Shown: piece by piece, positions 3,991-13,882 of the stretch
Numbering within the stretch: position 1 is the first letter of the stretch
How the letters are laid out: the number at the start of each line of letters is the position of its first letter
Assembly (NCBI GenBank): GCA_030018135.1
Contig: JASEGJ010000022.1
Location: 1 to 17,384, forward strand
Direction of reading: 5' to 3'
Length of the DNA: 17,384 bases
DNA from: Candidatus Hodarchaeaceae archaeon
GTDB taxonomy: Archaea; Hadarchaeota; Hadarchaeia; Hadarchaeales; Hadarchaeaceae
Notes under the pieces: generated by a model
What the model saw: the letters and a program-made list of their open reading frames with translations, nothing else
What the model was told of the DNA's origin: nothing
The model's database searches: none
Program-made: the position numbers and the translations under genes

Positions 3991-4164
3991 GAAAGGTCTT
4001 ATTTAGCGTCACAAAAATAGAGGCATAGGATGGTAAAAATCAGCATTTTGGCAGCGGAACGGTCGAGACAGATTGTATATATATAAATTTCATGATCTGT
4101 TTTTTGTGTAATGATTTGGCAATTCTCTAGCATAGGGATCAATCCCACCTTTACTTAAGCACGG

Positions 4165-4326: not shown

Positions 4327-5616
4327 ATGGAACTCCAAAGTAGGGTGAAGAGTAGGAATTTCACGTTAGCCGTAATCGGCTTGGGGCGCGTAGGCCTTCC
4401 TCTTTCTCTAGTATTCGCATCAAAAGGTGTGAACGTAACCGGAGTGGATGTGAATCCAGATACAATAAATAATCTTGAAAGAGGTGTTGTCACAGTTCGT
4501 GAAGAAGGCATCGAGGAATTATTTAACAAAGCACTTGAAAACCGAAAATTCTCAGTTACCACTGATGCGGCAGGCGCTATAAACAAAGCAGACGTCGTAA
4601 TCGTAACTGTAGGTACTCCCCTAACCCAAGACCTTAGACCTAATTTTAGTCAGCTTTATCAGGCACTGGGCGCGATATCGAGCCAATCGCTAGAAGGAAA
4701 GTTGATCGTGTTAAGAAGCACCGTTCCCCCAGGGACTACCGAAGGAGTTACATGCAAGTTCTTAAAGGAAAAAACTGGTTTGGAACCTGGACGTGATTTT
4801 TACCTAGCCTATTGTCCCGAGAGGATCTTAGAGGGCAAGGCAATAGAGGAATTAGAAAACCTTCCGGAGATCATAGGTGGTGTAGACTCGACGAGCTCGG
4901 CAATAGCCGCGGAGTTGTTCAAATTGATAAACCCAGAAAAAAGGATGATAATCACATCACCTAAGGTTGCGGAATTGGCAAAACTTTTCACGAATATTTA
5001 TAGGTATGTGAATTTTGCCTTAGCGAATCAATTCGCCTTGATCGCCGAGCACTACGGAACCGATGCGCATGAAGCGATTAGAGCAGCTAATGAGGATTAT
5101 AAACGATCTAACATTCCTTTACCTGGCCCAAGTGGGGGCCCTTGCCTTTATAAAGACGGATATATGCTCAACTATACCCCTTTTATCGATTTCATCAAAT
5201 CTGCTTGGCACCTCAACGAGAGTATTCCTCTCCATATTGTTAATCGGATAAAAGGAAAAGTAGGGAGCTTATTCGGTTTGAAGGTAGCGTTGTTGGGCTT
5301 AGCATTTAAAGCAGATATAGATGATACGAGACAATCACCAGCCATCAAGTTATTAAATGCGCTTAAAGCGGAGGGATGCGAAGTCGTGGCCCATGATCCC
5401 CATGTTAGCTCAGCCTCCCTCGAATCAGCGCTTTCTGGCGCGGATGTCGTAGTGTTAGCGGTTAATCACTCAAAATTTAAGGATCTAACATGCCAAGATA
5501 TCTCTAAGCTTGCTAAACCCAATTCTCTGCTTGTAGATTGCTGGGGTTTCTTTAAACCATCCGAAGCTGAAAAAGCCGGAATGAGATATGTGGGGCTGGG
5601 GAGGGGGCAGTTATGA
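4327..5616 (+). CDS. Nucleotide-sugar 6-dehydrogenase (UDP-Glc/GDP-Man DH family, WecC/WbpA-like)
   Basis: 429 aa; GLGRVG Rossmann motif, RSTVPPGTT, CPERILEG, ELAKLFTN, catalytic GPCLYKD, GLAFKADIDDTRQSPA. Confidence 0.92.
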   Translation: MELQSRVKSRNFTLAVIGLGRVGLPLSLVFASKGVNVTGVDVNPDTINNLERGVVTVREEGIEELFNKALENRKFSVTTDAAGAINKADVVIVTVGTPLTQDLRPNFSQLYQALGAISSQSLEGKLIVLRSTVPPGTTEGVTCKFLKEKTGLEPGRDFYLAYCPERILEGKAIEELENLPEIIGGVDSTSSAIAAELFKLINPEKRMIITSPKVAELAKLFTNIYRYVNFALANQFALIAEHYGTDAHEAIRAANEDYKRSNIPLPGPSGGPCLYKDGYMLNYTPFIDFIKSAWHLNESIPLHIVNRIKGKVGSLFGLKVALLGLAFKADIDDTRQSPAIKLLNALKAEGCEVVAHDPHVSSASLESALSGADVVVLAVNHSKFKDLTCQDISKLAKPNSLLVDCWGFFKPSEAEKAGMRYVGLGRGQL

Positions 5617-6639: not shown

Positions 6640-7635
6640 TTGAAAATTCTAGTCGTTCCAGCACATGAACCCATTGATGCAGAGCTAATGACATGTTGGT
6701 CAGCCCTTGGTCATGAAATATGCATTTATCCTACAAATCGATGGAAGTCATTCTTTGCCGAATTACCTGCGGGCGTTCAAACCAAACTAATAATTCCAAA
6801 CGTTATCTATTGTGGAGATCATTGGGATATCTTACGCGCACTATTTCTAAAATATGGATTAAATCCAAAAACACCAATTTTCAATGTTCTCTGGTGGTTC
6901 CCTTCTAAAAGCCCTCTTTATTATTTCGTAAATAACATTTCAGTCTGTGATTACGAAAGGGAATATCTGAAGAATCTCCTTGGTATCGATAGCCCTGTGA
7001 TATACTGCCCCGTAAACACCGATTTGTTTAGACCTGCCGAAAAATGGGAAAATAGAAAGATAGCAACGATCATAGGGAATTACTTTAAGGAAAGGCCAAT
7101 GATGGGGTGCGGTTACCTTCTTAAAATATTTGAGCGGGTTCATGAGCTAGATCCCGAAATCCGATTTCGGGTAATCGGGAATAATCCAAATCTACTGTGT
7201 CCTCCCCACGTTGAAAAAGTGTTCTTAAAAAGAGAAGAAATGCCAAAATACATTAACGAGTCTTCCTGTGTCTTCTTTACGACCACGCAGAATTTGATAC
7301 CCCATAGTTTGTTGATAAGCATGAGCTGCGGCAAAAATGTGATCGCCTTCGATTTACCATCTCTCCGTGAAGTAATCGTCGACGGCGTAACGGGGCACTT
7401 AATCCCCCTATTCGATGTTGAAATGTTTGCCAAAAAAATTGTTGAAGTAGCAAGTGACCCCCCAAGAAAAATAGGGGAAAAAGCTAGAGAAGTTGTTATA
7501 GACAAGTGCGAAAGGATGAAGGTCGCAAAACAATTTATTAAGGTTTTTGAAAAGGAACGCGGTTATTTTTGGCATAATATCCGGATGGCCCTTCTTTTCC
7601 GTTTCACCCGCTCGGCAAAAGTTTTTCCAATTTGA
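6640..7635 (+). CDS. GT-B fold glycosyltransferase, divergent GT4-like
   Basis: 331 aa; VIYCPVNTDLFRP linker and SMSCGKNVIAFDLPSLREVIVDGVTGHLI C-terminal signature. The EX7E glutamates are absent. Confidence 0.75.
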   Translation: MKILVVPAHEPIDAELMTCWSALGHEICIYPTNRWKSFFAELPAGVQTKLIIPNVIYCGDHWDILRALFLKYGLNPKTPIFNVLWWFPSKSPLYYFVNNISVCDYEREYLKNLLGIDSPVIYCPVNTDLFRPAEKWENRKIATIIGNYFKERPMMGCGYLLKIFERVHELDPEIRFRVIGNNPNLLCPPHVEKVFLKREEMPKYINESSCVFFTTTQNLIPHSLLISMSCGKNVIAFDLPSLREVIVDGVTGHLIPLFDVEMFAKKIVEVASDPPRKIGEKAREVVIDKCERMKVAKQFIKVFEKERGYFWHNIRMALLFRFTRSAKVFPI

Positions 7636-8180
7636 CTAAAAATATCAAATAAAAATTTGATTTTTATCCTTTTGATTTCAAAAGCACAACATTGGGCACT
7701 GAGTATCTTAAACCTCGATTTTTCAAATAAATCTGAAAGGGATTCTTTGGTGAAAAACTGTTTGTGATCTGGGTCTGCACGAATATTAGGATCCCATTTT
7801 GACGGAACTTCCGCGATGATTACGCCTCCTTTTTTTAAGACTCTAAAAAATTCTCTCACCGCTTCATGCGGATTTTCTAAATGTTCTAGAACATGGTGGC
7901 AAAAAATTCCGTCGAAAAAGTTATTTTTGTAGGGCAAACTTCTAATATCACCGATTACTGACATTTCATACTTACTGGCGGTCTTTACCTCTTCAGGGTT
8001 ACAGTCGATTCCATGAAGCTCCACTTGAGCAGGTTTAAATTTACCAAACCACCCAACCCCACAACCCGCATCCAAGATTTTATTACAATTATGCTTAATG
8101 AAAATCGACCAGTACTTTTGAATTTGATACTCCGATGGATATTCCTTGTATATCCTTAACACAGTTCGAATTCCTGTCAA
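7563..8180 (-). CDS. Class I SAM-dependent methyltransferase (Methyltransf_11-like)
   Basis: ILDAGCGVG motif I, LHGID, GDIRSLPY..NFFD, HVLEHL, FRVLKKGG. The start (TTG 8180) is uncertain. Confidence 0.85.
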   Translation of the reverse strand: MTGIRTVLRIYKEYPSEYQIQKYWSIFIKHNCNKILDAGCGVGWFGKFKPAQVELHGIDCNPEEVKTASKYEMSVIGDIRSLPYKNNFFDGIFCHHVLEHLENPHEAVREFFRVLKKGGVIIAEVPSKWDPNIRADPDHKQFFTKESLSDLFEKSRFKILSAQCCAFEIKRIKIKFLFDIFSQIGKTFAERVKRKRRAIRILCQK

Positions 8181-8186
8181 GATAGA

Positions 8187-9350
8187 TCAGCCCTTGTCAA
8201 ACTTTTCTACCATTTGGATAAATCTGTCACAAACCTTCGGCCAGGTGTAGGTGGCCTCCACATATTCTCTGCCCTTTTCAGCCAACTTTCGCCTTTTTTC
8301 CTCCTCGGAAAGCAAATTGCATATCTCACGCGTAGCCTCTGAAGCATCCCTAAATAAAAATCCACGTTTCCCGACCACTTCCCGGTGGGCCGGAATGTCC
8401 GACACGACGGGGAAAGCCCCACACGCTAGCGCCTCGATGGGTACTATCCCAAATCCCTCGAACTCGGAGCACGAGAGCAGGACCTTAGCCCGTTGTAATA
8501 CCCTGAGCTTCTCCTGCTCCGCGACGAACCCCCTAAATTTTATACCTTTATCCTTAGCCAGCTCCATTAACCTCCTCCTGTCTGGGCCATCCCCAACGAT
8601 AACGAGCTTAACATCAGGCACCTTTTCCTTCACCCGCCTGAAAATCTCTATCGCCATGTCCACGCGCTTGTAGGACACCAGCCTCCCCAGTACCGCTATC
8701 GTCTGCTGCTTTTCCTTGGAGTACTTGTACTTCTCTATCTCTATCCCGTTGCCCGTCACGAATATCCTCTCCCTCGCTATGCCGTAGCTCCTGACCATGG
8801 GCTCGATGTTCTGAACTGAAACAGTTTCAACGAGGTCGGCATATCTGGGTAGGTTGTTGTAGAGCCAGACGTAGAAGAGGCCCGGATAAACGAGCGGACC
8901 GTAATCCCTCCTGTAGTGATGAAGATAGAGCGGGATCTCGTACACATCGTGCACCTCGGCAATCAACGGGATTTTATGCGCCCTCGCCAGCACGAAAACC
9001 CTTGGAAAGGCGAACGACATGGGGGTGACGAGGAAATCGGGCTTTTTCGCTTTAAGGATCCTATTGAGCGCCCTAACACAAGAAACGGTGTTGACCGCCA
9101 TGTTTTTCAAGGAGACGGCTATGGGCTCATCGAACCAAGGGGAATAAGAGCCATACCTGATGAACTCGATACCATCGATGACCTCGTGTTCTGGCGTCCC
9201 TCTCCACCTACCCGTGACCATCTTCACCCCATGCCCTCTTTTAACCAGCTCCCTCGACAAGAAGAACGCATGCGCCTCCCCTCCGCCCGGGATCACCAGC
9301 TTCTCGCCCTTCCGATGAGGGAAGACCTCGCTAACGAAGCAGAACTTCAT
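8187..9350 (-). CDS. GT4 glycosyltransferase
   Basis: 387 aa; GGGE N-terminal loop, GRLVSYKRVD, IVGDGP, EGFGIVPIEALACG (EX7E), YTW C-terminus. Confidence 0.92.
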   Translation of the reverse strand: MKFCFVSEVFPHRKGEKLVIPGGGEAHAFFLSRELVKRGHGVKMVTGRWRGTPEHEVIDGIEFIRYGSYSPWFDEPIAVSLKNMAVNTVSCVRALNRILKAKKPDFLVTPMSFAFPRVFVLARAHKIPLIAEVHDVYEIPLYLHHYRRDYGPLVYPGLFYVWLYNNLPRYADLVETVSVQNIEPMVRSYGIARERIFVTGNGIEIEKYKYSKEKQQTIAVLGRLVSYKRVDMAIEIFRRVKEKVPDVKLVIVGDGPDRRRLMELAKDKGIKFRGFVAEQEKLRVLQRAKVLLSCSEFEGFGIVPIEALACGAFPVVSDIPAHREVVGKRGFLFRDASEATREICNLLSEEEKRRKLAEKGREYVEATYTWPKVCDRFIQMVEKFDKG

Positions 9351-9417: not shown

Positions 9418-9678
9418 TCAACCCCAAGACCCAAGTATAAAGGCCGCATGAAAGCGGAGCCGTCGGCGTGATTCAAGCTTCATCCCCGCGGAAGAGACGA
9501 ATACTCTATGGATGTGTACGCCTTCGTGCACCTCGTAGCTCGGCAAACCTCTGAACCTCCGCGTGAGGATGTGGATCTCGTGTCCTTTGGCCAACCTCCT
9601 TGCGGTCTCGTACATCCGCGTTTCCTCGCCGCCCAGCAGAAAAGGGTAGAAGAGATCCGAGGCCATAAGAATACGCAT
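9418..9678 (-). pseudogene. GT4 N-terminal fragment, copy 1 (longest, 86 codons)
   Basis: MRILMASDLFYPFLLGGEETRMYETARRLAKGHEIHILTRRFRGLPSYEVHEGVHIHRV is a typical GT4 N-terminus; the frame closes early with no C-terminal domain. Confidence 0.85.
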
Positions 9679-9745
9679 CAGCTCACCCCCAAGCAATCAC
9701 TTCCAGAGCGGTCTGTAAATGATTCTCCCCCAATCTTTCTCTCCC
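9679..9745 (-). pseudogene. Remnant C-terminus of a DUF4143 ATPase paralogue
   Basis: Reads GRIIYRPLWK*LLGGE (TGA at 9697-9699), compared with KIRFIPLWKWLLGGS at the end of 11016..12269. Confidence 0.75.
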
Positions 9746-10378
9746 CTAAACTTGGGACACCCAAACATCCAGCTTCTCATATTCTGCTCCAAACCTCTGC
9801 AGCGCGTCCGTCAGCTCCTTTAGGTTCTTCGCTGGAACCAAGACAGATGCTATGCCGGTCCTTCTGCCCCCCAACTTTTCGATCAGCCCCGCAACCTCAC
9901 TTTTGTATGTCTTCCCCCCATATCGTTTAACCGTCCGATGCCCATAAAGCGCCCTTTTGAGCCTCATCTTGTCGGGTTTGCCAATTTTTTTAAGGGAAAA
10001 GTGTACGAGCGAGCACGGCTCCAGCTTTAATCTTTTAGCATCTACTTGCGGGACCTTGCCGTACAGGATTAGACCCTCCTTGAACACTTCCTCGATGAAT
10101 TGACTGTCAAGTCCGTCGAAATTTTTGTTCGTGAAAACGAGTGATACGCCCCTGCCGAATTCTTTCTCGAGGTTCAAACCGATTTCGCCGACATGTCTTC
10201 GGAGTTCTTTGCTTACCGGTTTTTGCGTGTCCGAGATCACGAGAAAGTCCACATCGCTTCTAGGGTCAGCCTCCCCCTCAGCTACCGAGCCGAAAAGGAT
10301 TAAGGATCGAACTTCAGGAATGCCGGAAATCCTCTTTGCGAACTCAAACACCAAGTCCTTAAACTCGGTTTGAATCAT
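9746..10378 (-). CDS. MNT (Pol-beta-like minimal nucleotidyltransferase) antitoxin with an extra ~90-aa C-terminal domain
   Basis: ILFGSVAEGEADPRSDVDF (GS..D.D) and EEVFKEGLILYG; the ORF continues to 210 aa. Confidence 0.85.
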   Translation of the reverse strand: MIQTEFKDLVFEFAKRISGIPEVRSLILFGSVAEGEADPRSDVDFLVISDTQKPVSKELRRHVGEIGLNLEKEFGRGVSLVFTNKNFDGLDSQFIEEVFKEGLILYGKVPQVDAKRLKLEPCSLVHFSLKKIGKPDKMRLKRALYGHRTVKRYGGKTYKSEVAGLIEKLGGRRTGIASVLVPAKNLKELTDALQRFGAEYEKLDVWVSQV

Positions 10379-10797
10379 TTCCTCGCCCCATTATCACGAA
10401 AACTTTCTTTTGTGGACTTTCGTAATACTGGATTGGAACCCAAGTGCTTTTCACAAATATTTTTGACGACCTCCGTCAGCTCCTGGGTTCTCTCTAACGC
10501 CTCGCCGTTTATGGCGCCACCGTAAGCCTGCCCCGGTCGGATTTGATTCTCTACTTCTTGGAACGCCCGCCAAACCTTTTCCGTGTCTTCTCCAAAAATT
10601 CCTTTGTTCAATTCGAGGACGTTTCTCACGAGTTTGTGTTTGTTGATATGAATTCGGTGTTTCGCGGTTACCGCCTCGATCAGGTGAAATGTCGCCTCAA
10701 AGAAAGCCTCTATCCTAGTGGGCTCCGAGTTCTGCTCGTTTGTTACGTCCTTCAGGAACATGTGATACTTTTTAATGTGAATCTCGAACGATGACAT
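10375..10797 (-). CDS. HEPN-superfamily protein, putative toxin partner of the MNT
   Basis: 140 aa, helical pattern; EAFFEATFHLIEA, a conserved-type H, RPGQAY (RX4Y); ATGA overlap with the MNT. Confidence 0.65.
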   Translation of the reverse strand: MSSFEIHIKKYHMFLKDVTNEQNSEPTRIEAFFEATFHLIEAVTAKHRIHINKHKLVRNVLELNKGIFGEDTEKVWRAFQEVENQIRPGQAYGGAINGEALERTQELTEVVKNICEKHLGSNPVLRKSTKESFRDNGARK

Positions 10798-10818
10798 ACT
10801 CTTCCCTTGTTTATATTG

Positions 10819-10854
10819 TATTACGCAAAATACCTATTTATAGTTTTCGTTATA
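10819..10854 (-). promoter_or_regulatory. HEPN-MNT promoter: TATA inside an imperfect 36-bp inverted repeat
   Basis: Minus-strand TATAAATA (10835-10842) flanked by TATTACGCAAAA and TTTTCGTTATA; a related copy sits at 10392-10427. Confidence 0.5.
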
Positions 10855-10893
10855 TTATCTTAGAAAAAGCGGGGAGCAATCGAGAAAAAGTTT

Positions 10894-11016
10894 CTATAGG
10901 TCGTGAGGATGTGGGGTTTCGTGTTTCACCAACCTGCGCACTATCTCGTACATCCGCTTTTCCCCACCGCCAAGAAGGAAGGGGTGGAAGAGGTCCGAGG
11001 CCATCAGGATTCGCAT
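10894..11016 (-). pseudogene. GT4 N-terminal fragment, copy 2 (40 codons)
   Basis: MRILMASDLFHPFLLGGGEKRMYEIVRRLVKHE, then a frameshifted HILT. DNA similarity to copy 1 ends at 10902. The ATG overlaps the ATPase stop (TGATG). Absent from the ORF track because it is short. Confidence 0.85.
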
Positions 11017-12269
11017 CAGGACCCCCCAAGCAGCCACTTCCATAGGGGAATGAAGCGTATTTTTACCCCCCCAACTGTTTCACTTCCCTCAACATCCTTA
11101 GTTACAATCGTGCCTTCTTCAGCACCGAGTTCTCTCGCGCACGACACGAGCCCCCCGACCTCGCGCTTTCGCACCTTGTCGCTCATTTCGACCACGACCT
11201 GCACCAGCTCCTCCACCCTCACCCCTTTCCTGGTCACGAAATCCGTTTCAGCTCCCCGCCTGTCTTTCCAGTAGTGGATTTCGTGGTTTTGCGGCAGCCG
11301 CCTTTTCAACTCCAAGAACACGGCGTTTTCGAAGAGCCGGCCCATATCGACTTTTCCACTCACCGTATACATGAAACCGGTGTCCCCCAGATACGCCTTC
11401 CTCGGGTACTGCAACCGGTCCTTTATGCTGTACGAAAATATGGGGACGAAGAAGAAAAGGTAGCCGTCCTGAGAGCGTTTTTCCAAGTTGAGGATGCTCT
11501 GTTTGCCGATTTTGTGGCCGAGGCTTTTGAATAGGTTCAGACACTTCGAGGCGGAGAAGTACGGCGTCTCGACGATGTACTTTCCGAACAGCTCTACTGT
11601 GGTCGGAGTTTCCCCAGCCATCTCGGCCACATCGAGCCCCGCGATGTCCTTGAAGTAAGAGTTAAGCAGTTTGACCTTGTCCGTTTTATCGCTGAGGAGG
11701 ACGACCTCCGGGAACCCCCCGTAAATGAGGTAGTCGTGCAGCGCCCTCTCTATTTTGCCCAGTCCGACGGTCGTCCGTTCGAACTCTATGCCGCAGAACT
11801 GCAGAAACTCCTTGAACGATAGGGGGTAAAGCTCGTACGTCAGCACTCTCCCCCTGAGCGGTTTGCTGGGCACCGCGAGCCTTTTCCGCGAGGAGCTCAC
11901 AATCAGGTGCAGCTTTTCCTTCAGTAGCTCATGGTTGCGGGAGAGCCACCCTTCCCAGTCCCAAACATTTGTTATCTCATCCAGCAACAAGTAGCCAGTG
12001 TCTCCGAACCACTTCAGTATCTCGTCGAGGACATTCCGCGCATCCTTGATCCTGCTGTCCTCCAGATCGATGTATCCAGCCTTTTTGCCTTCCTTGGCCA
12101 GCTTCTGGTGCAAGAGGATCAGCAGGCTGGACTTCCCCGCCCTCCGTATGCCGGTGACCCCTATTATCTTCAGCAGGGAGTTGGCTTCCATGGCGTCGAG
12201 ATCGGTTGCCCGCGGCTTGAGCTGTTTTTTGAGAGCGTAGGTGTTCCACTCGTCGAACACTTGCTGCAT
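11016..12269 (-). CDS. AAA_14 ATPase with DUF4143 / PD-(D/E)xK-like C-terminal domain
   Basis: 417 aa; Walker A GIRRAGKS, Walker B LLLDE, LYPLSFKEF, YGGFPE, KAYLGDTG, GRLFENAVFLEL, ETDFV..VQV, PLWKWLL. Confidence 0.9.
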   Translation of the reverse strand: MQQVFDEWNTYALKKQLKPRATDLDAMEANSLLKIIGVTGIRRAGKSSLLILLHQKLAKEGKKAGYIDLEDSRIKDARNVLDEILKWFGDTGYLLLDEITNVWDWEGWLSRNHELLKEKLHLIVSSSRKRLAVPSKPLRGRVLTYELYPLSFKEFLQFCGIEFERTTVGLGKIERALHDYLIYGGFPEVVLLSDKTDKVKLLNSYFKDIAGLDVAEMAGETPTTVELFGKYIVETPYFSASKCLNLFKSLGHKIGKQSILNLEKRSQDGYLFFFVPIFSYSIKDRLQYPRKAYLGDTGFMYTVSGKVDMGRLFENAVFLELKRRLPQNHEIHYWKDRRGAETDFVTRKGVRVEELVQVVVEMSDKVRKREVGGLVSCARELGAEEGTIVTKDVEGSETVGGVKIRFIPLWKWLLGGS

Positions 12270-12325
12270 AATATTGTTTTTCTACAGAACAATATTTAAG
12301 TATTATTGTTTTTATATGGAACAAT
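12270..12325 (-). promoter_or_regulatory. ATPase promoter with two ATTGTT-N9-AACAAT operators
   Basis: AATATTGTT-N9-AACAATATT (12270-12296) and ATTGTT-N9-AACAAT (12305-12325). Minus-strand TTAAATA at 12293-12299 lies 24-30 nt before the ATG. Confidence 0.65.
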
Positions 12326-12341
12326 TTTTGAGTGGGTGTTT

Positions 12342-12463
12342 AGTTCGTATGTGGTTCGAGTTCATCGTTTTTTCGGCCAACCTGCGCGCTACCTCGTACA
12401 TCCGTGTTTCCTCGCCGCCAAGCAGGAAAAGGTGGGAGAGACCGAAGCCATCAGGATGTGCAT
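12342..12463 (-). pseudogene. GT4 N-terminal fragment, copy 3 (frameshifted)
   Basis: MHILMAS, a 1-nt deletion, then LSHLFLLGGEETRMYEVARRLAEK..HIRT. Clear DNA similarity to copies 1 and 2 over 12375-12463, weaker down to about 12342. Confidence 0.8.
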
Positions 12464-13149
12464 CGGCTAACCTGCCCCATCTTGATAGTAAGGTAGGTGG
12501 AATGCCGGGTGAATATCCGTGAAAGGAGATTCGAAATCCGGCGGGGGAAAGGGTAAATCCCGCAACCCACGAGCTTTTCCACTTTAAATCCATGATATCT
12601 TGCGAGGTCTCTAAGCGCCGCAGCCGTGAATAACTTAACGTGACCGTGGGTTTCGGTTCCATAAAGAAAATTACCACCTGGACTCTGCTCACGTGCGGGC
12701 CGGGAGGCATCATACCTAAGCCCATAAAAGCTAAGTTGTGGAATGAGCTCAGATTTGCCGTCGATATCACCGCGTAACCTCCGGGGTCTAAAATCCTCCG
12801 AATCTCCGAGAAAAAGCCATCCGTGTTCCAAAGGTGCTCCAGGACTTGATTCGATACGACAACATCGAAAGAGTCGTCTTCGTGTGGGAACTTTGCATTC
12901 GCATCGTGTTTGATCGCCTCAATTCCCTTTTCCCTCGCTTGTTCCACACCATATTCATCGATGTCCATGCCATACAACCTCTTCGTCCCGATCACCCCCC
13001 ACTTTAAGCGTGAATTCGCCGGAAGTGCACCCGATGTCCAATACCCTCGCGTCGCTGTCCTTTTCCAGAAGCGAGAGCACCCTATGCTGGTTCTCCTGAT
13101 AATGTCCGCTAGCAAATCCGAAAAACTTGCTATCACTCCACTTTCTCAT
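12451..13149 (-). pseudogene. Class I SAM methyltransferase, two frameshifts
   Basis: Motifs fall in three frames: RVLDIGCTSG (12955..13242 frame); LYGMDID..FDVVVSNQVLEHL..RILDPGG (12312..13136 frame); GHVKLFT..HGFKVEK (12451..12831 frame). Shifts occur near 12995-13000 and about 12675-12680. Confidence 0.85.
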
Positions 13150-13802
13150 CAGCTCACCCTCTGCTTCAGCAGCGCCCAAAATATCTTGAACCCGCTGGCG
13201 ATGGTCGTCCCCCGCGCCTTCGAGTACGGGGTGTAGAAACACCTGACCGGAACCTCCTTGAGCCCCAACCCAAGTTTCCGTGCCTGGACTATTATTTCAG
13301 ACGAGACCTCGTAGCGGTCGCTCCGGATGCGGATCGCCTCGAGCGCCCGGCGGTTGAACGCTCTAGAGCCGGACTGGGAGTCCGTGAATACGCCCGAAAA
13401 GAGGTAGGTTATGAAATTCAGCCCAAAATTCCCTATTCGCTTGTGAAGAGGTATGCCAAGGTGCTGCCTGACGCCTATTGCTACGTCCCCTCCGTCCAAA
13501 GCCTCCAAAAGCCTTTGCACGGCTTTGGGGTCATGCTGCCCATCTGCGTCGAAGGTGACGGCTCGATCAGCTCCCCTCTCGCGAGCAGCCCCCAAACCGG
13601 TCCTGAGTGCTGCCCCGAGTCCCATATTTTTGGGATGGCTAATGACCAGCGCACCCTTCGAGCGGGCGATCTCAACCGTCCGATCAGTTGAGCCGTCGTC
13701 GACCACTATGACATTCGCCCAGCCCTCAGTGCGTAGGGAGTCAAGTACCCCTCCTATGGTCCGCTCCTCATTGTGGGCAGGCATGACTATCCAGACTTTC
13801 AT
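13149..13802 (-). CDS. GT2 glycosyltransferase, DPM1/AglJ-like polyprenol-phosphate glycosyltransferase
   Basis: VMPAHNEE, VVDDGSTD, N.GLGAA, FDADGQH, TDSQSGSRAF; ATG 13802 preceded by GTGAGG. Confidence 0.88.
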   Translation of the reverse strand: MKVWIVMPAHNEERTIGGVLDSLRTEGWANVIVVDDGSTDRTVEIARSKGALVISHPKNMGLGAALRTGLGAARERGADRAVTFDADGQHDPKAVQRLLEALDGGDVAIGVRQHLGIPLHKRIGNFGLNFITYLFSGVFTDSQSGSRAFNRRALEAIRIRSDRYEVSSEIIVQARKLGLGLKEVPVRCFYTPYSKARGTTIASGFKIFWALLKQRVS

Positions 13803-13882
13803 TTTCCTCACACTTAATTGGTTTCGGGCCCTGATTAAACCCTAACTTTATGACCTTCTAGAAATAAGAAATGAGGGATCAA

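Follow-up and report, generated by a model that had tools for sequence, protein, structure and literature searches.

A possible recombination hotspot at a surface-glycan operon junction in Hadesarchaea: glycosyltransferase gene starts stacked between selfish cassettes

The stretch of DNA analysed here (17,384 nucleotides, hereafter the window) contains three 5' ends of one GT4 glycosyltransferase gene, with ATGs at 12463, 11016 and 9678, which stand between cassettes of TA-like and ATPase genes. These are the sole copies in the 1.1-Mb Hadesarchaea genome, and a full-length version of this GT4 is absent from both the window and the genome. Similar arrays recur in relatives with other cargo and other breakpoints. 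We propose, giving it roughly an even chance, that they mark a hotspot of recombination in a surface-glycan operon, at the junction where the stop of one gene overlaps the start of the next, and that cassettes and GT4 alleles have been added there serially.

A repeat search of the window returned a three-copy family (9586-9689, 10924-11027 at 78% and 12372-12475 at 63% ungapped, the last figure being low because of a 1-nt deletion), with a further repeat directly upstream of it (9686-9711 and 11023-11048, 85%). When 9540-9760 was compared by BLASTN with the whole 1,108,398-base genome, 10902-11048 (78%, E 5.9e-27) and 12372-12472 (79%, E 1.7e-18) were recovered and, beyond the three GT4 copies, just two matches of 16-20 nt (E>0.2). 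Both searches confirm what an earlier note on this DNA had read from the letters, namely three diverged direct repeats encoding one GT4 start, and its gene order on the minus strand also holds: a GT2 gene (13811-13149), a methyltransferase, stub3, an AAA_14+DUF4143 ATPase (12269-11016), stub2, a 140-aa ORF (10797-10375), an MNT gene (NTP_transf_2, 10378-9746), the 3' remnant of an ATPase, stub1 (9678-9418) and then a different, intact GT4 (9350-8187). The note was equally right that the window holds neither a full-length copy nor an integrase; none of its 20 ORFs matches PF00589. The array units measure 1.3-1.45 kb and hold cargo genes only.

The three stubs, all on the minus strand, are cut at different points. 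Stub2 (10901..11024) comprises the ribosome-binding region and the first 116 nt of the GT4 with a 2-nt indel, is 90% identical over 93 nt to the full GT4 of genome G055 and breaks off sharply after CACATCCTCACG, at +116 (window 10901), as claimed for its H-I-L-T codons. Stub3 (12358..12475) retains the ribosome-binding region and codons 1 to ~32-35, with a 1-nt deletion. It had been said to fade at equivalent H-I-R-T codons, which was not borne out: the GT4 homology of stub3 stops near +97 to +106, a break that differs from that of stub2, and the H-I-R-T letters are part of a motif, GAACCACATAYGAACTA, found ahead of ATPase genes in four other loci. What remains of this older ATPase-promoter motif, GAACCACATACGAACTA, occupies 12341..12357 (minus strand); the loci with the same motif before an ATPase gene include L093, L060/L067 and G024:C14. 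Stub1 (9418..9678) is an open remnant of 86 codons that is cut as well, its GT4 homology reaching ~+232 with the unrelated GT4 beginning 70-100 nt further on; it is 85-86% identical to full-length genes in other genomes. Full-length relatives 75-89% identical to stub1 match PF13439 and PF00534 (E 1e-26 to 1e-46) and are GT-B-complete, and judged by these sequences the stubs belong to a GT4 glycosyltransferase; stub1 itself scores 25.3 bits on PF13439, below the 28.5-bit cut-off.

The first cassette is an intact ATPase (11016..12269, minus strand) of the COG1373, PD-(D/E)XK type, in which AAA_14 (PF13173, residues 34-156, E 1.2e-22) is followed by DUF4143 (PF13635, residues 267-350, E 1.9e-11), both above cut-off; its stop codon overlaps the ATG of stub2. 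DUF4143 is counted among the PD-(D/E)XK families in a passage of PMC3424549. Both cargo units are preceded by AT-rich, TATA-like stretches. For the ATPase this is 12269..12332 (minus strand), where GC drops to 0.48 and two tandem 32-nt repeats with arms AATATTGTT/AACAATATT form its presumed promoter and operator; for the TA-like pair the presumed promoter is the spacer at 10798..10900 (minus strand), with TATA-like boxes and a GC of 0.42 over 10650-10949. The second cassette opens with the 140-aa ORF (10375..10797, minus strand), overlapped by 4 nt by the 210-aa MNT-type nucleotidyltransferase (9746..10378, minus strand). The latter matches PF01909 (E 4e-11, 43.6 bits against a 21-bit cut-off) and PF18765, and scores 39.3 bits on the NCBIfam MntA equivalog, under its 60-bit cut-off. 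The 140-aa ORF has no Pfam or NCBIfam match and no BLASTP similarity to the HepT of a relative; its nearest clusters in an Atlas feature search are labelled 'HEPN domain-containing' (score 0.95), its AF2 model is all-helical and weak (pLDDT 59.6), and it contains an R-x5-H string (RIHINKH), the HEPN motif being Rx4-6H. It is probably a HEPN-like partner of the MNT. The HEPN+MNT pair of the earlier note thus stands for its MNT domain, and its HEPN half, which matches no family, is carried by the Atlas score.

A second TA pair in the window, VapBC-like and next to tRNA-Arg, lies between diverged copies of the tRNA 3' end. These copies make up a direct repeat of 35 nt, and in relatives the site is cleanly empty. 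The 3' end of a tRNA gene is a classic integrase target, and this pair is a hint that small TA modules are inserted in this lineage by site-specific enzymes working in trans.

Behind the MNT gene, at 9679..9759 (minus strand), the 3' end of a second ATPase is left over; it reads RIIYRPLWK*LLGG, interrupted by an in-frame stop. By tblastn it is 63% identical to the C-terminus of a G037 ATPase over 27 aligned positions, two of them gaps, and 64% identical to the window's own ATPase over 14 residues; in BLASTN the region matches the end of the G037 ATPase together with the stub at 83% over 157 nt. On these comparisons the remnant belongs to an ATPase lineage other than that of the intact gene. 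The stubs likewise point outwards: stub1 and stub2 match genes in other genomes at 85-90% identity but each other at only 78%, and 13 of their 20 differences fall on third codon positions (P 0.004). The G055 stub and the full copy of the same genome differ in the same way (14 of 22, P 0.0035), as do 13 of 18 comparisons at P<0.05, these being non-independent and the P values raw. The third-position bias and the foreign ATPase remnant together show that the copies are different functional alleles rather than products of duplication in place, and this point of the earlier interpretation is supported.

Five further genomes, G022, G024, G026, G037 and G055, carry stubs of the same GT4, and G007 carries stubs of a second GT4 subfamily. 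This makes six further genomes among the 65 searched in the order, from three of its five families; 14 of 41 type-1 metagenome loci contain stubs too. The cargo behind them includes UPF0175-PIN, HicAB, ORF80 plus a retropepsin-like gene, diverse ATPases and other GT4 genes. Among 26 stubs, seven have an intact ATPase directly upstream, an eighth (G055s) stands at a contig start and two have a remnant. The uninterrupted site with an intact GT4 that the earlier note had called for exists: an intact GT2 lies directly before the full GT4 in 10 of 33 5'-complete copies. In the second subfamily three states can be compared, GFO followed by GT4 (G015), GFO-ATPase-GT4 (G009) and GFO-HicBA-stub-ATPase-GT4 (G007). 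Where an intact copy is present in direct orientation it is the last of the array (G055, G007); the G037 copies stand inverted. The right flanks often include 3' remnants, of a GT2 before copies in G055, L057, G022 and G026 and of an ATPase before the copy in L072 and before stub1. At least 25 5' stubs contrast with one orphan 3' part (L097). The same cassettes also occur in other settings. In contigs of two sequencing runs (X1, X2) the ATPase unit is missing: a stub is joined to the same MNT pair (~95% identical), and past the ATPase remnant these contigs run into a different GT4 start, the shared part beginning at 10867. In contigs of two other runs (X3, X4) the same ATPase (96%) has different neighbours beyond 12327 and 11024, and on one X3 contig two stub copies lie 1,223 nt from each other. 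A run containing the window itself was sought and none was found, the best share being 0.16, so that no excised circle or variant in reads of the source sample was seen as an intermediate.

Stubs in six further genomes and in 14 of 41 metagenome loci indicate a recurrent process, as the earlier note held, rather than three chance deletions. It is very improbable that the stubs are simply three tandem paralogous GT4 genes truncated independently in a decaying cluster, without any mobility. Divergence of the copies under coding constraint would fit such an origin, as would the visible decay (a frameshifted methyltransferase, frameshifted stubs, the ATPase remnant), but none of the 33 5'-complete copies adjoins a second full copy of the same type, the truncations are 5' stubs of at most 283 nt with one 3' orphan among at least 25, a promoter and a selfish gene regularly follow the stubs, and the same cassettes have other flanks in other populations. 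An artefact of metagenome assembly is barely credible: the assembly is in 45 contigs and two G026 contigs do end within stub copies, but equivalent arrays appear across many independent assemblies, and the window copies are 78-84% alike with exact runs of at most 13 nt, too short to mislead an assembler.

The genes around the array belong to a glycan cluster, and some have decayed. The GT2 (13149..13811, minus strand; PF00535, E 3.3e-24) is PpgS/AglJ-like, its NCBIfam PpgS and AglJ matches falling under the cut-offs. The SAM methyltransferase (12451..13136, minus strand; Methyltransf_11) is split between two frames that switch near 12674, residues 52-159 of the L097 methyltransferase aligning to one frame and 160-225 to the other; this would be either a pseudogene or a sequencing error. 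Its stop overlaps the ATG region of stub3, and the same methyltransferase-stub junction is present in G026:C121 and L097. The intact GT4 at the other end (8187..9350, minus strand), assigned by its Pfam matches, is of another subfamily ('GT4b'), with amino acid identities of 86% to G003, 79% to L090 and 69% to L097, and also adjoins stubs in L097 and L090. We regard the array in this genome as a fossil: it has lost the GT4 body by a later deletion, the methyltransferase alongside carries a frameshift, and the selfish genes alone are intact.

The positions of the breaks bear on how the cassettes entered. The fixed site about 115 nt into the GT4 that had been suggested is not supported, as 25 stub ends span about +30 to +283 nt and about five of them fall at +106 to +123; ends defined by BLAST are imprecise where stubs hold internal deletions, and two of the 25 values are shortened in this way (stub A of G026:C121, at +30, where the GT4 match resumes at position ~287, and L067b, at +123, which continues to ~+190). 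Nor does each cargo have one junction, one promoter occurring at three or four different join positions. The UPF0175-PIN promoter joins at ~+119 in G024, at +182 in L096 and behind an internally deleted stub in G026, and the ATPase motif GTGAACTAAATATT... joins at +109 (L093), +213 plus 21 nt (L060/L067), a type-2 stub (G024) and ~+97 (window). Alternative cargo thus exists (UPF0175-PIN, HicAB, ATPases), as predicted, but at scattered ends and not at the same breakpoint. Upstream, the extent of the repeat varies from -8 to about -290.

These data can be set against site-specific integration into the GT4 5' region, by a tyrosine or other recombinase encoded elsewhere, of small elements or decayed remnants of larger ones that carry a replacement 5' end, with later deletions scattering the ends. 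The copies differ mainly at synonymous sites, as element-borne replacement ends do, and the last copy is intact in the G055 and G007 arrays. The cluster at +106 to +123 exceeds a uniform spread, includes three cargo types and could mark a preferred site; a joint CAC(G/A)T|GTGAAC is seen twice, independently, in L093 and in G024, and would fit a short recognition core. Deletions within stubs do occur, as just described, and the VapBC-like pair at tRNA-Arg, with its 35-nt repeat and clean empty sites, shows a comparable form. A search of the genome for tyrosine recombinases, as had been advised, found three PF00589 genes, all on other contigs (C33, C22 and C1). However, no recombinase is encoded in the window, and PF00589 finds none in the annotated array loci or on the G024 and G055 array contigs and no match genome-wide in G022 (92% complete), G037 (94%) and G026 (75%), three of the five array-bearing genomes. 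Moreover, a single cargo has differing junctions and filler sequences, the upstream reach of the repeat varies, the longest block identical in all three window repeats is 12 nt, no attC-like fold was seen (the three repeats, folded as single-stranded DNA for each strand, gave z -0.27 to +1.36 against shuffles), and the G037 copies are inverted. We therefore consider such integration possible but unlikely.

A driving role of the COG1373 ATPase, whose DUF4143 domain would cut near the GT4 start so that break repair copies in the ATPase and neighbouring cassettes (homing-like or break-induced), is more doubtful still and, in our judgement, improbable. This subfamily is by far the commonest cargo, and its genes almost always stop precisely at the ribosome site of the GT4; the position is shared by very different ATPase lineages (31-57% identity), and DUF4143 is classed as a nuclease fold in the source passage cited above. 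Yet the three other ATPase copies of the genome (C10, C42) lack flanking repeats, a window-type ATPase stands elsewhere in G024 without any GT4 start, array units without an ATPase exist (G026:C121, L057), and no nuclease activity or target is known.

The proposed hotspot would work as follows. In the uninterrupted state the GT4 directly follows the GT2, its ATG overlapping the GT2 stop (GGTGAGCTGATG) so that the two genes leave no gap. Cassettes with promoters of their own, selfish or of defence type, would enter this junction serially, here a COG1373 AAA+/nuclease-fold ATPase and then the MNT pair, in other genomes PIN, HicAB and other modules. The operon would stay working only if a complete stop/ribosome-site/ATG junction remained on both sides, so that a surviving insertion would keep the displaced GT4 start to its left, as a stub of 30-280 nt, and have a new junction copy to its right, often with a short 3' remnant of the gene that preceded the GT4 in the source. 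Since the new copy is a different GT4 allele, we infer that one side joined by homology, through pairing within the conserved start region, and the other side illegitimately. Insertion of a looped-out X-cassette circle by a single crossover would be an equivalent route, as would unequal exchange, and a dedicated site-specific integrase need not be invoked. Addictive TA cargo would oppose later loss through recombination between the repeats. This route, like the selection filter, is reconstructed, the route from end states only, and we know of no efficient homologous pairing at 78-90% identity over ~100-230 nt, which counts against it.

Several known systems resemble the array in part. Chromosomal integrons such as the Vibrio superintegron are arrays with TA cassettes, mostly promoterless and read from a common promoter. 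Likewise, small independently acquired units including TA pairs are separated here by repeats, the array varies between relatives and the TA cargo is plausibly stabilising. However, there is no adjacent intI, what is repeated is the coding 5' end of a gene and shows no attC-like fold, boundaries vary, each unit is apparently self-promoted and the repeats are relics of functional alleles. An integron is therefore not supported (no adjacent IntI, no attC-type palindrome, no constant recombination point), and with it the integron-like hotspot with an att site imagined in the earlier note, whose interpretation overall is partly supported. Phage 21 and e14 in icd, like the elements of archaea and bacteria that target tRNA genes, bring along a replacement for the end of the gene they enter (for icd, its 3' end). 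The duplicated target end, the mainly silent differences between copies and the displaced fragment left in place are similar, and the tRNA-Arg/VapBC case has this form; the array differs in its use of a 5' end, its 1.2-1.5 kb units without integrase, serial stacking and scattered ends. An integrase-borne element with a replacement gene end is likewise not supported, as the units are cargo-only and the repeats 78-84% alike with a shared block of at most 12 nt. Homology-facilitated illegitimate recombination, and flexible (replacement or additive) genomic islands in glycosylation clusters, share one conserved anchor with one illegitimate joint, a hypervariable surface-glycan cluster and allele replacement by DNA of diverged relatives. 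With type VII HEPN-MNT systems the putative TA pair shares an MNT overlapping a small helical partner by 4 nt and a putative promoter region of its own, but the partner lacks a HEPN family match, the MntA model falls under its cut-off, and the partner-first order and 210-aa MNT are atypical. In the literature searched we found no description of stubs from a single gene start being stacked repeatedly, and with one polarity, with selfish cassettes in between.

It is tempting to go one step further, to a cassette exchange that would need no dedicated integrase alongside it and in which the conserved GT4 stop/ribosome-site/start and its first ~100-230 nt serve as a common recombination site, where self-promoted TA and defence cassettes, and alternative GT4 alleles, loop out, move between lineages and insert again. 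We regard this as speculative and rather unlikely. If true, such an exchange would couple the turnover of defence genes to surface-glycan variation and would be a functional analogue of the integron, built on a gene start.

The junction between GT2, or another upstream gene, and the stub-type GT4 is read as a hotspot. In the window, where all the genes relevant to the array are on the minus strand, Pfam scan and sequence place a GT2 gene (13811-13149) and a SAM methyltransferase gene (13136-12451) ahead of stub3, the first displaced GT4 5' end (ATG at 12463). An AT-rich stretch then leads to an AAA_14+DUF4143 ATPase gene (12269-11016), also assigned by Pfam scan and sequence, and the ATG of stub2 (11016) overlaps the ATPase stop. 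A further AT-rich stretch separates stub2 from a pair formed by a 140-aa ORF (10797-10375) and a nucleotidyltransferase gene of the MNT family (10378-9746), the latter recognised by Pfam scan and sequence. The MNT gene and stub1 (9678-9418) are separated by an ATPase 3' end of ~70-80 nt, and a different, intact GT4 (9350-8187; Pfam scan and sequence) follows. The stubs, the second AT-rich stretch, the 140-aa ORF and the ATPase remnant were placed from the sequence. The ATPase and the MNT pair alone remain intact: the GT4 body is absent, two stubs carry frame damage (a 1-nt deletion in stub3, a 2-nt indel in stub2) and the methyltransferase is broken, lying in two frames split near 12674 by comparison with its homologue in the metagenome locus L097. 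Residues 1 to ~46 of the methyltransferase have no match to that homologue, and the copy in the related genome G026 also appears split. The array in this genome is a relic rather than a working switch.

As the earlier note had it, the three stubs form a single repeat family; they are its sole copies in the 1.108-Mb, 45-contig genome (E 5.9e-27, 1.7e-18). In a six-frame search of the genome, stub1 matched nothing beyond the three stubs themselves and, at 9350-8187, the distant GT4; an intact stub-type GT4, whose absence had been noted for the window, is missing from the whole genome. Stub2 does break sharply, at +116 from the GT4 ATG, after CACATCCTCACG. The break of stub3 is not at the equivalent point that had been proposed, the homology to GT4 running only to about +97 to +106. 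Because the letters that follow, GAACCACATACGAACTA, match a motif, GTGAACTAAATATTTAAATATTTGAACCACATATGAACTA, found before ATPase genes in L093, L060/L067 and G024:C14, the supposed H-I-R-T codons were rejected and the stub3 tail is read as the remnant of an earlier ATPase promoter. An assembly artefact was rejected too, since the divergence between copies is too great and independent assemblies repeat the pattern.

Full-length stub-type GT4 genes are found in six related genomes (G037, G055, G046, G028, G040 and G034) and in many metagenome contigs. The uninterrupted sites that the earlier note had predicted exist: of the 33 5'-complete copies examined, 10 have an intact GT2 immediately ahead of the full GT4, the GT2 stop overlapping the GT4 start, and two more (G055, L057) have only a GT2 3' remnant of 56-116 nt there. 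G003 was rejected as a clean empty site for the array, the whole block being absent but DUF1614 rearranged. Of the order's 65 genomes, 7 contain stubs (six besides that of the window), as do 14 of 41 metagenome loci with the stub type (49 loci, minus seven with only distant GT4 genes and one duplicating a contig).

Other cargo behind the stubs, also expected, comprises UPF0175+PIN, HicB-HicA, ORF80 with a retropepsin-like gene, and ATPases. G026:C121 reads methyltransferase, stub, UPF0175+PIN, GT2 remnant, stub; G024:C14 reads stub, UPF0175+PIN, ATPase remnant, second-type GT4 stub, ATPase; and G022:C38 reads GT2 remnant, stub, ATPase. G055:C63 (with L061/L063) runs GT2, stub, ATPase, stub, ORF80 and retropepsin-like gene, GT2 remnant, full GT4. 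Among metagenome loci, L067 has GT2, stub, two ATPases and a stub; L060 has GT2, type-2 stub, ATPase, stub, ATPase, stub; L057 has UPF0175 and PIN/DUF3368, GT2 remnant and full GT4; and L097 has two ATPases, a methyltransferase, a 22-codon stub and a gene like the intact GT4 of the window. In L097 this last gene lies between the 5' stub (4001-4066) and an orphan 3' part of the stub-type GT4 (7123-7702, residues ~175-367), 3 kb apart. G037:C4 has an ATPase and then an 83-nt stub that matches the start of a full GT4, 1.5 kb away in inverted orientation, with 100% identity; an inversion between the two GT4-start copies is possible. This 83-nt perfect inverted repeat (5446-5529 / 7115-7197, L019) brackets the ATPase gene and the intergenic region.

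A second GT4 subfamily gives the same series behind a different upstream gene, GFO: GFO directly before GT4 in G015, GFO-ATPase-GT4 in G009, and GFO-HicB-HicA-stub-inverted ATPase-GT4 in G007. At the junction of the stub type itself, a second GT4 type with the start V(K/R)ILYITEIYPD takes turns with it (L060 2460-2560; L022, that is G024:C14, 9721-9900; L076 385-1557). Since this second type appears as full genes and as stubs, the two behave like alternative alleles of the slot.

None of 16 sequencing runs contained the window itself, the best holding 0.16 of the sampled words. Contigs from four of them (X1-X4), compared at a likeness of at least 85%, represent relatives only, from runs that may stem from few campaigns. 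X1 and X2 each have a contig where a stub runs into the 140-aa ORF promoter at 10867 and on through both MNT-pair genes at ~95% identity, without the ATPase unit; another contig passes from the ATPase remnant at 9687 into an apparent second-type GT4 start. In X3 and X4, the ATPase is 96% identical (12327-11024) with both flanks unlike the window, the 3' flank being once more a type-2 GT4 start. A single X3 contig carries two stub copies 1,223 nt apart. Two of four joints (X4: 9690->10970, 11007->9632) were excluded, being most simply one copy that maps partly to stub1 and partly to stub2. These contigs show modularity rather than dynamics.

The copies were compared by pairwise identities, their 93-230 nt being too short for a full tree. 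Differences fall at third codon positions in 13 of 20 cases between stub1 and stub2, 10/18 between stub1 and stub3, 7/15 between stub2 and stub3, and 14/22 between the G055 stub and its own full copy. The excess over one third reached P<0.05 in 13 of 18 comparisons, which are non-independent and uncorrected (exceptions: P = 0.2, 0.075, 0.52, 0.058 and 0.1). Stub1 and stub2 are 85-90% identical to genes of other genomes and 78% to each other. The ATPase remnant before stub1 (RIIYRPLWK*LLGG) likewise resembles the G037/L097 ATPase lineage more than the ATPase of the window (KIRFIPLWKWLLGG); the DNA of remnant plus stub1 shares 83% identity with the G037 ATPase end and stub, versus 78% with the window's ATPase end and stub2. 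This closeness to other genomes, together with the foreign remnant, argues from sequence comparison that each copy once belonged to a different working allele, rather than arising by duplication in place and then decaying. 5' stubs far outnumber 3' remnants, the sole orphan 3' part being that of L097, and an intact copy, where present in direct orientation, is the downstream one.

The model of integron-like modules integrating at a fixed site ~115 nt into the GT4 is not supported. (i), stub ends spread from +30 to +283 (n=25: 30, 66, 66, 74, 83, ~97-106, 109, 111, 116, 123, 154, 159, 182, 192, 213 twice, 216, 218, 219 twice, 228, 229, 232, 264 and 283, several being one junction counted twice and the values of G026 A and L067b being shortened by deletions within the stub). 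(ii), one junction per cargo is contradicted by the UPF0175-PIN promoter and by the ATPase motif. (iii), the repeat has no attC-like fold, and its upstream reach, -8 to ~-290, is set by the gene upstream in the source. (iv), the window lacks an integrase by Pfam scan, as previously noted; the suggested tyrosine recombinase search found three PF00589 genes, all on contigs other than the window's, with none on the array contigs of G024 and G055 and no match anywhere in G022, G037 and G026. The annotated array loci of relatives also lack an adjacent integrase. In G037, the full GT4 is followed directly by a DDE IS240-type gene, and IS200/TnpB-type genes occur in L037 and L096; a consistent link of these to stubs was not found.

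We propose instead that selfish cassettes and new GT4 alleles would be added serially at the upstream-gene/GT4 junction. As the upstream stop overlaps the GT4 ATG, the operon would be kept intact only if a full junction survives on both sides, which would explain the displaced start left, and the fresh junction right, of every unit. We favour homology at one side with illegitimate joining at the other (or its equivalent, a circle of repeat plus cassette that is looped out and inserted by a single crossover), because ends are scattered, fillers differ, upstream remnants are mismatched and a recombinase is lacking. A site-specific enzyme that acts in trans and inserts units at the GT4 start is nevertheless kept alive, since stub ends cluster near +110-120 (about five of the 25 lie at +106 to +123), the joint CAC(G/A)T|GTGAAC recurs, and a second TA pair of the window sits between diverged tRNA-Arg 3' ends with clean empty sites in relatives. 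There, the last ~25 nt of tRNA-Arg(TCT) (1529-1604) and 10 nt downstream recur at 2366-2400 with 80% identity, bracketing an 84-aa ORF (1668-1922) and a PIN/VapC gene (1923-2333): a second TA-like pair amid diverged gene-end repeats, without integrase. In G003:C11 and G019:C104, the tRNA is directly joined to the flippase side (two BLAST pieces overlapping by 36 nt), making these the empty sites.

That the ATPase itself drives the process is a weakened reading: some arrays contain no ATPase, and flanking repeats are missing from ATPase copies elsewhere in the genome, self-BLAST of the surroundings of the COG1373 copies on C10 and C42 giving no duplications. Three more COG1373-type copies, one truncated, lie at C42:26857-29399 and C10:13605-14717; the C42 copy at 26.8 kb has the PLWKWLL end seen in the array, but no GT4 start behind it. 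Directly upstream of the array ATPase ATG, a repeat search found a tandem pair of 32-nt repeats within the AT-rich stretch (12332-12269), both with inverted arms of 9 nt (AATATTGTT/AACAATATT), a likely candidate operator judging from the sequence; related palindromes precede the ATPase genes of G022 and G024. The 140-aa ORF had been called HEPN: it has no family match, no BLASTP similarity to a relative's HepT and a weak single-sequence AF2 model (pLDDT 59.6), and an Atlas feature search leads to HEPN clusters at 0.95, which makes HEPN a candidate identity.

Little is known of the routes by which toxin-antitoxin pairs and orphan defence ATPases travel in archaeal genomes; most of them occupy variable regions where no vehicle is apparent. 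Among known systems, the closest are integron TA cassettes, integrative elements that carry a replacement gene end and, within variable glycosylation islands, homology-facilitated illegitimate recombination. The locus has some features in common with the first two, but does not behave as either in their defining tests, and it shares features with the third. The literature searched, mostly at abstract level, describes no arrays of this kind. Here, stacked and dated relics (gene-start stubs, promoter remnants and 3' remnants) record how units were added serially at a single operon junction, and this uncultured lineage with small genomes offers many independent examples as well as uninterrupted sites. 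Should a trans-acting enzyme take part, its target is defined by the locus; should the process need no recombinase, it would reveal a route for selfish genes into compact genomes with overlapping genes, where only junction-duplicating insertions survive. The GT2/GT4 junction is also flagged as the variable point of the Hadesarchaea surface-glycan cluster.
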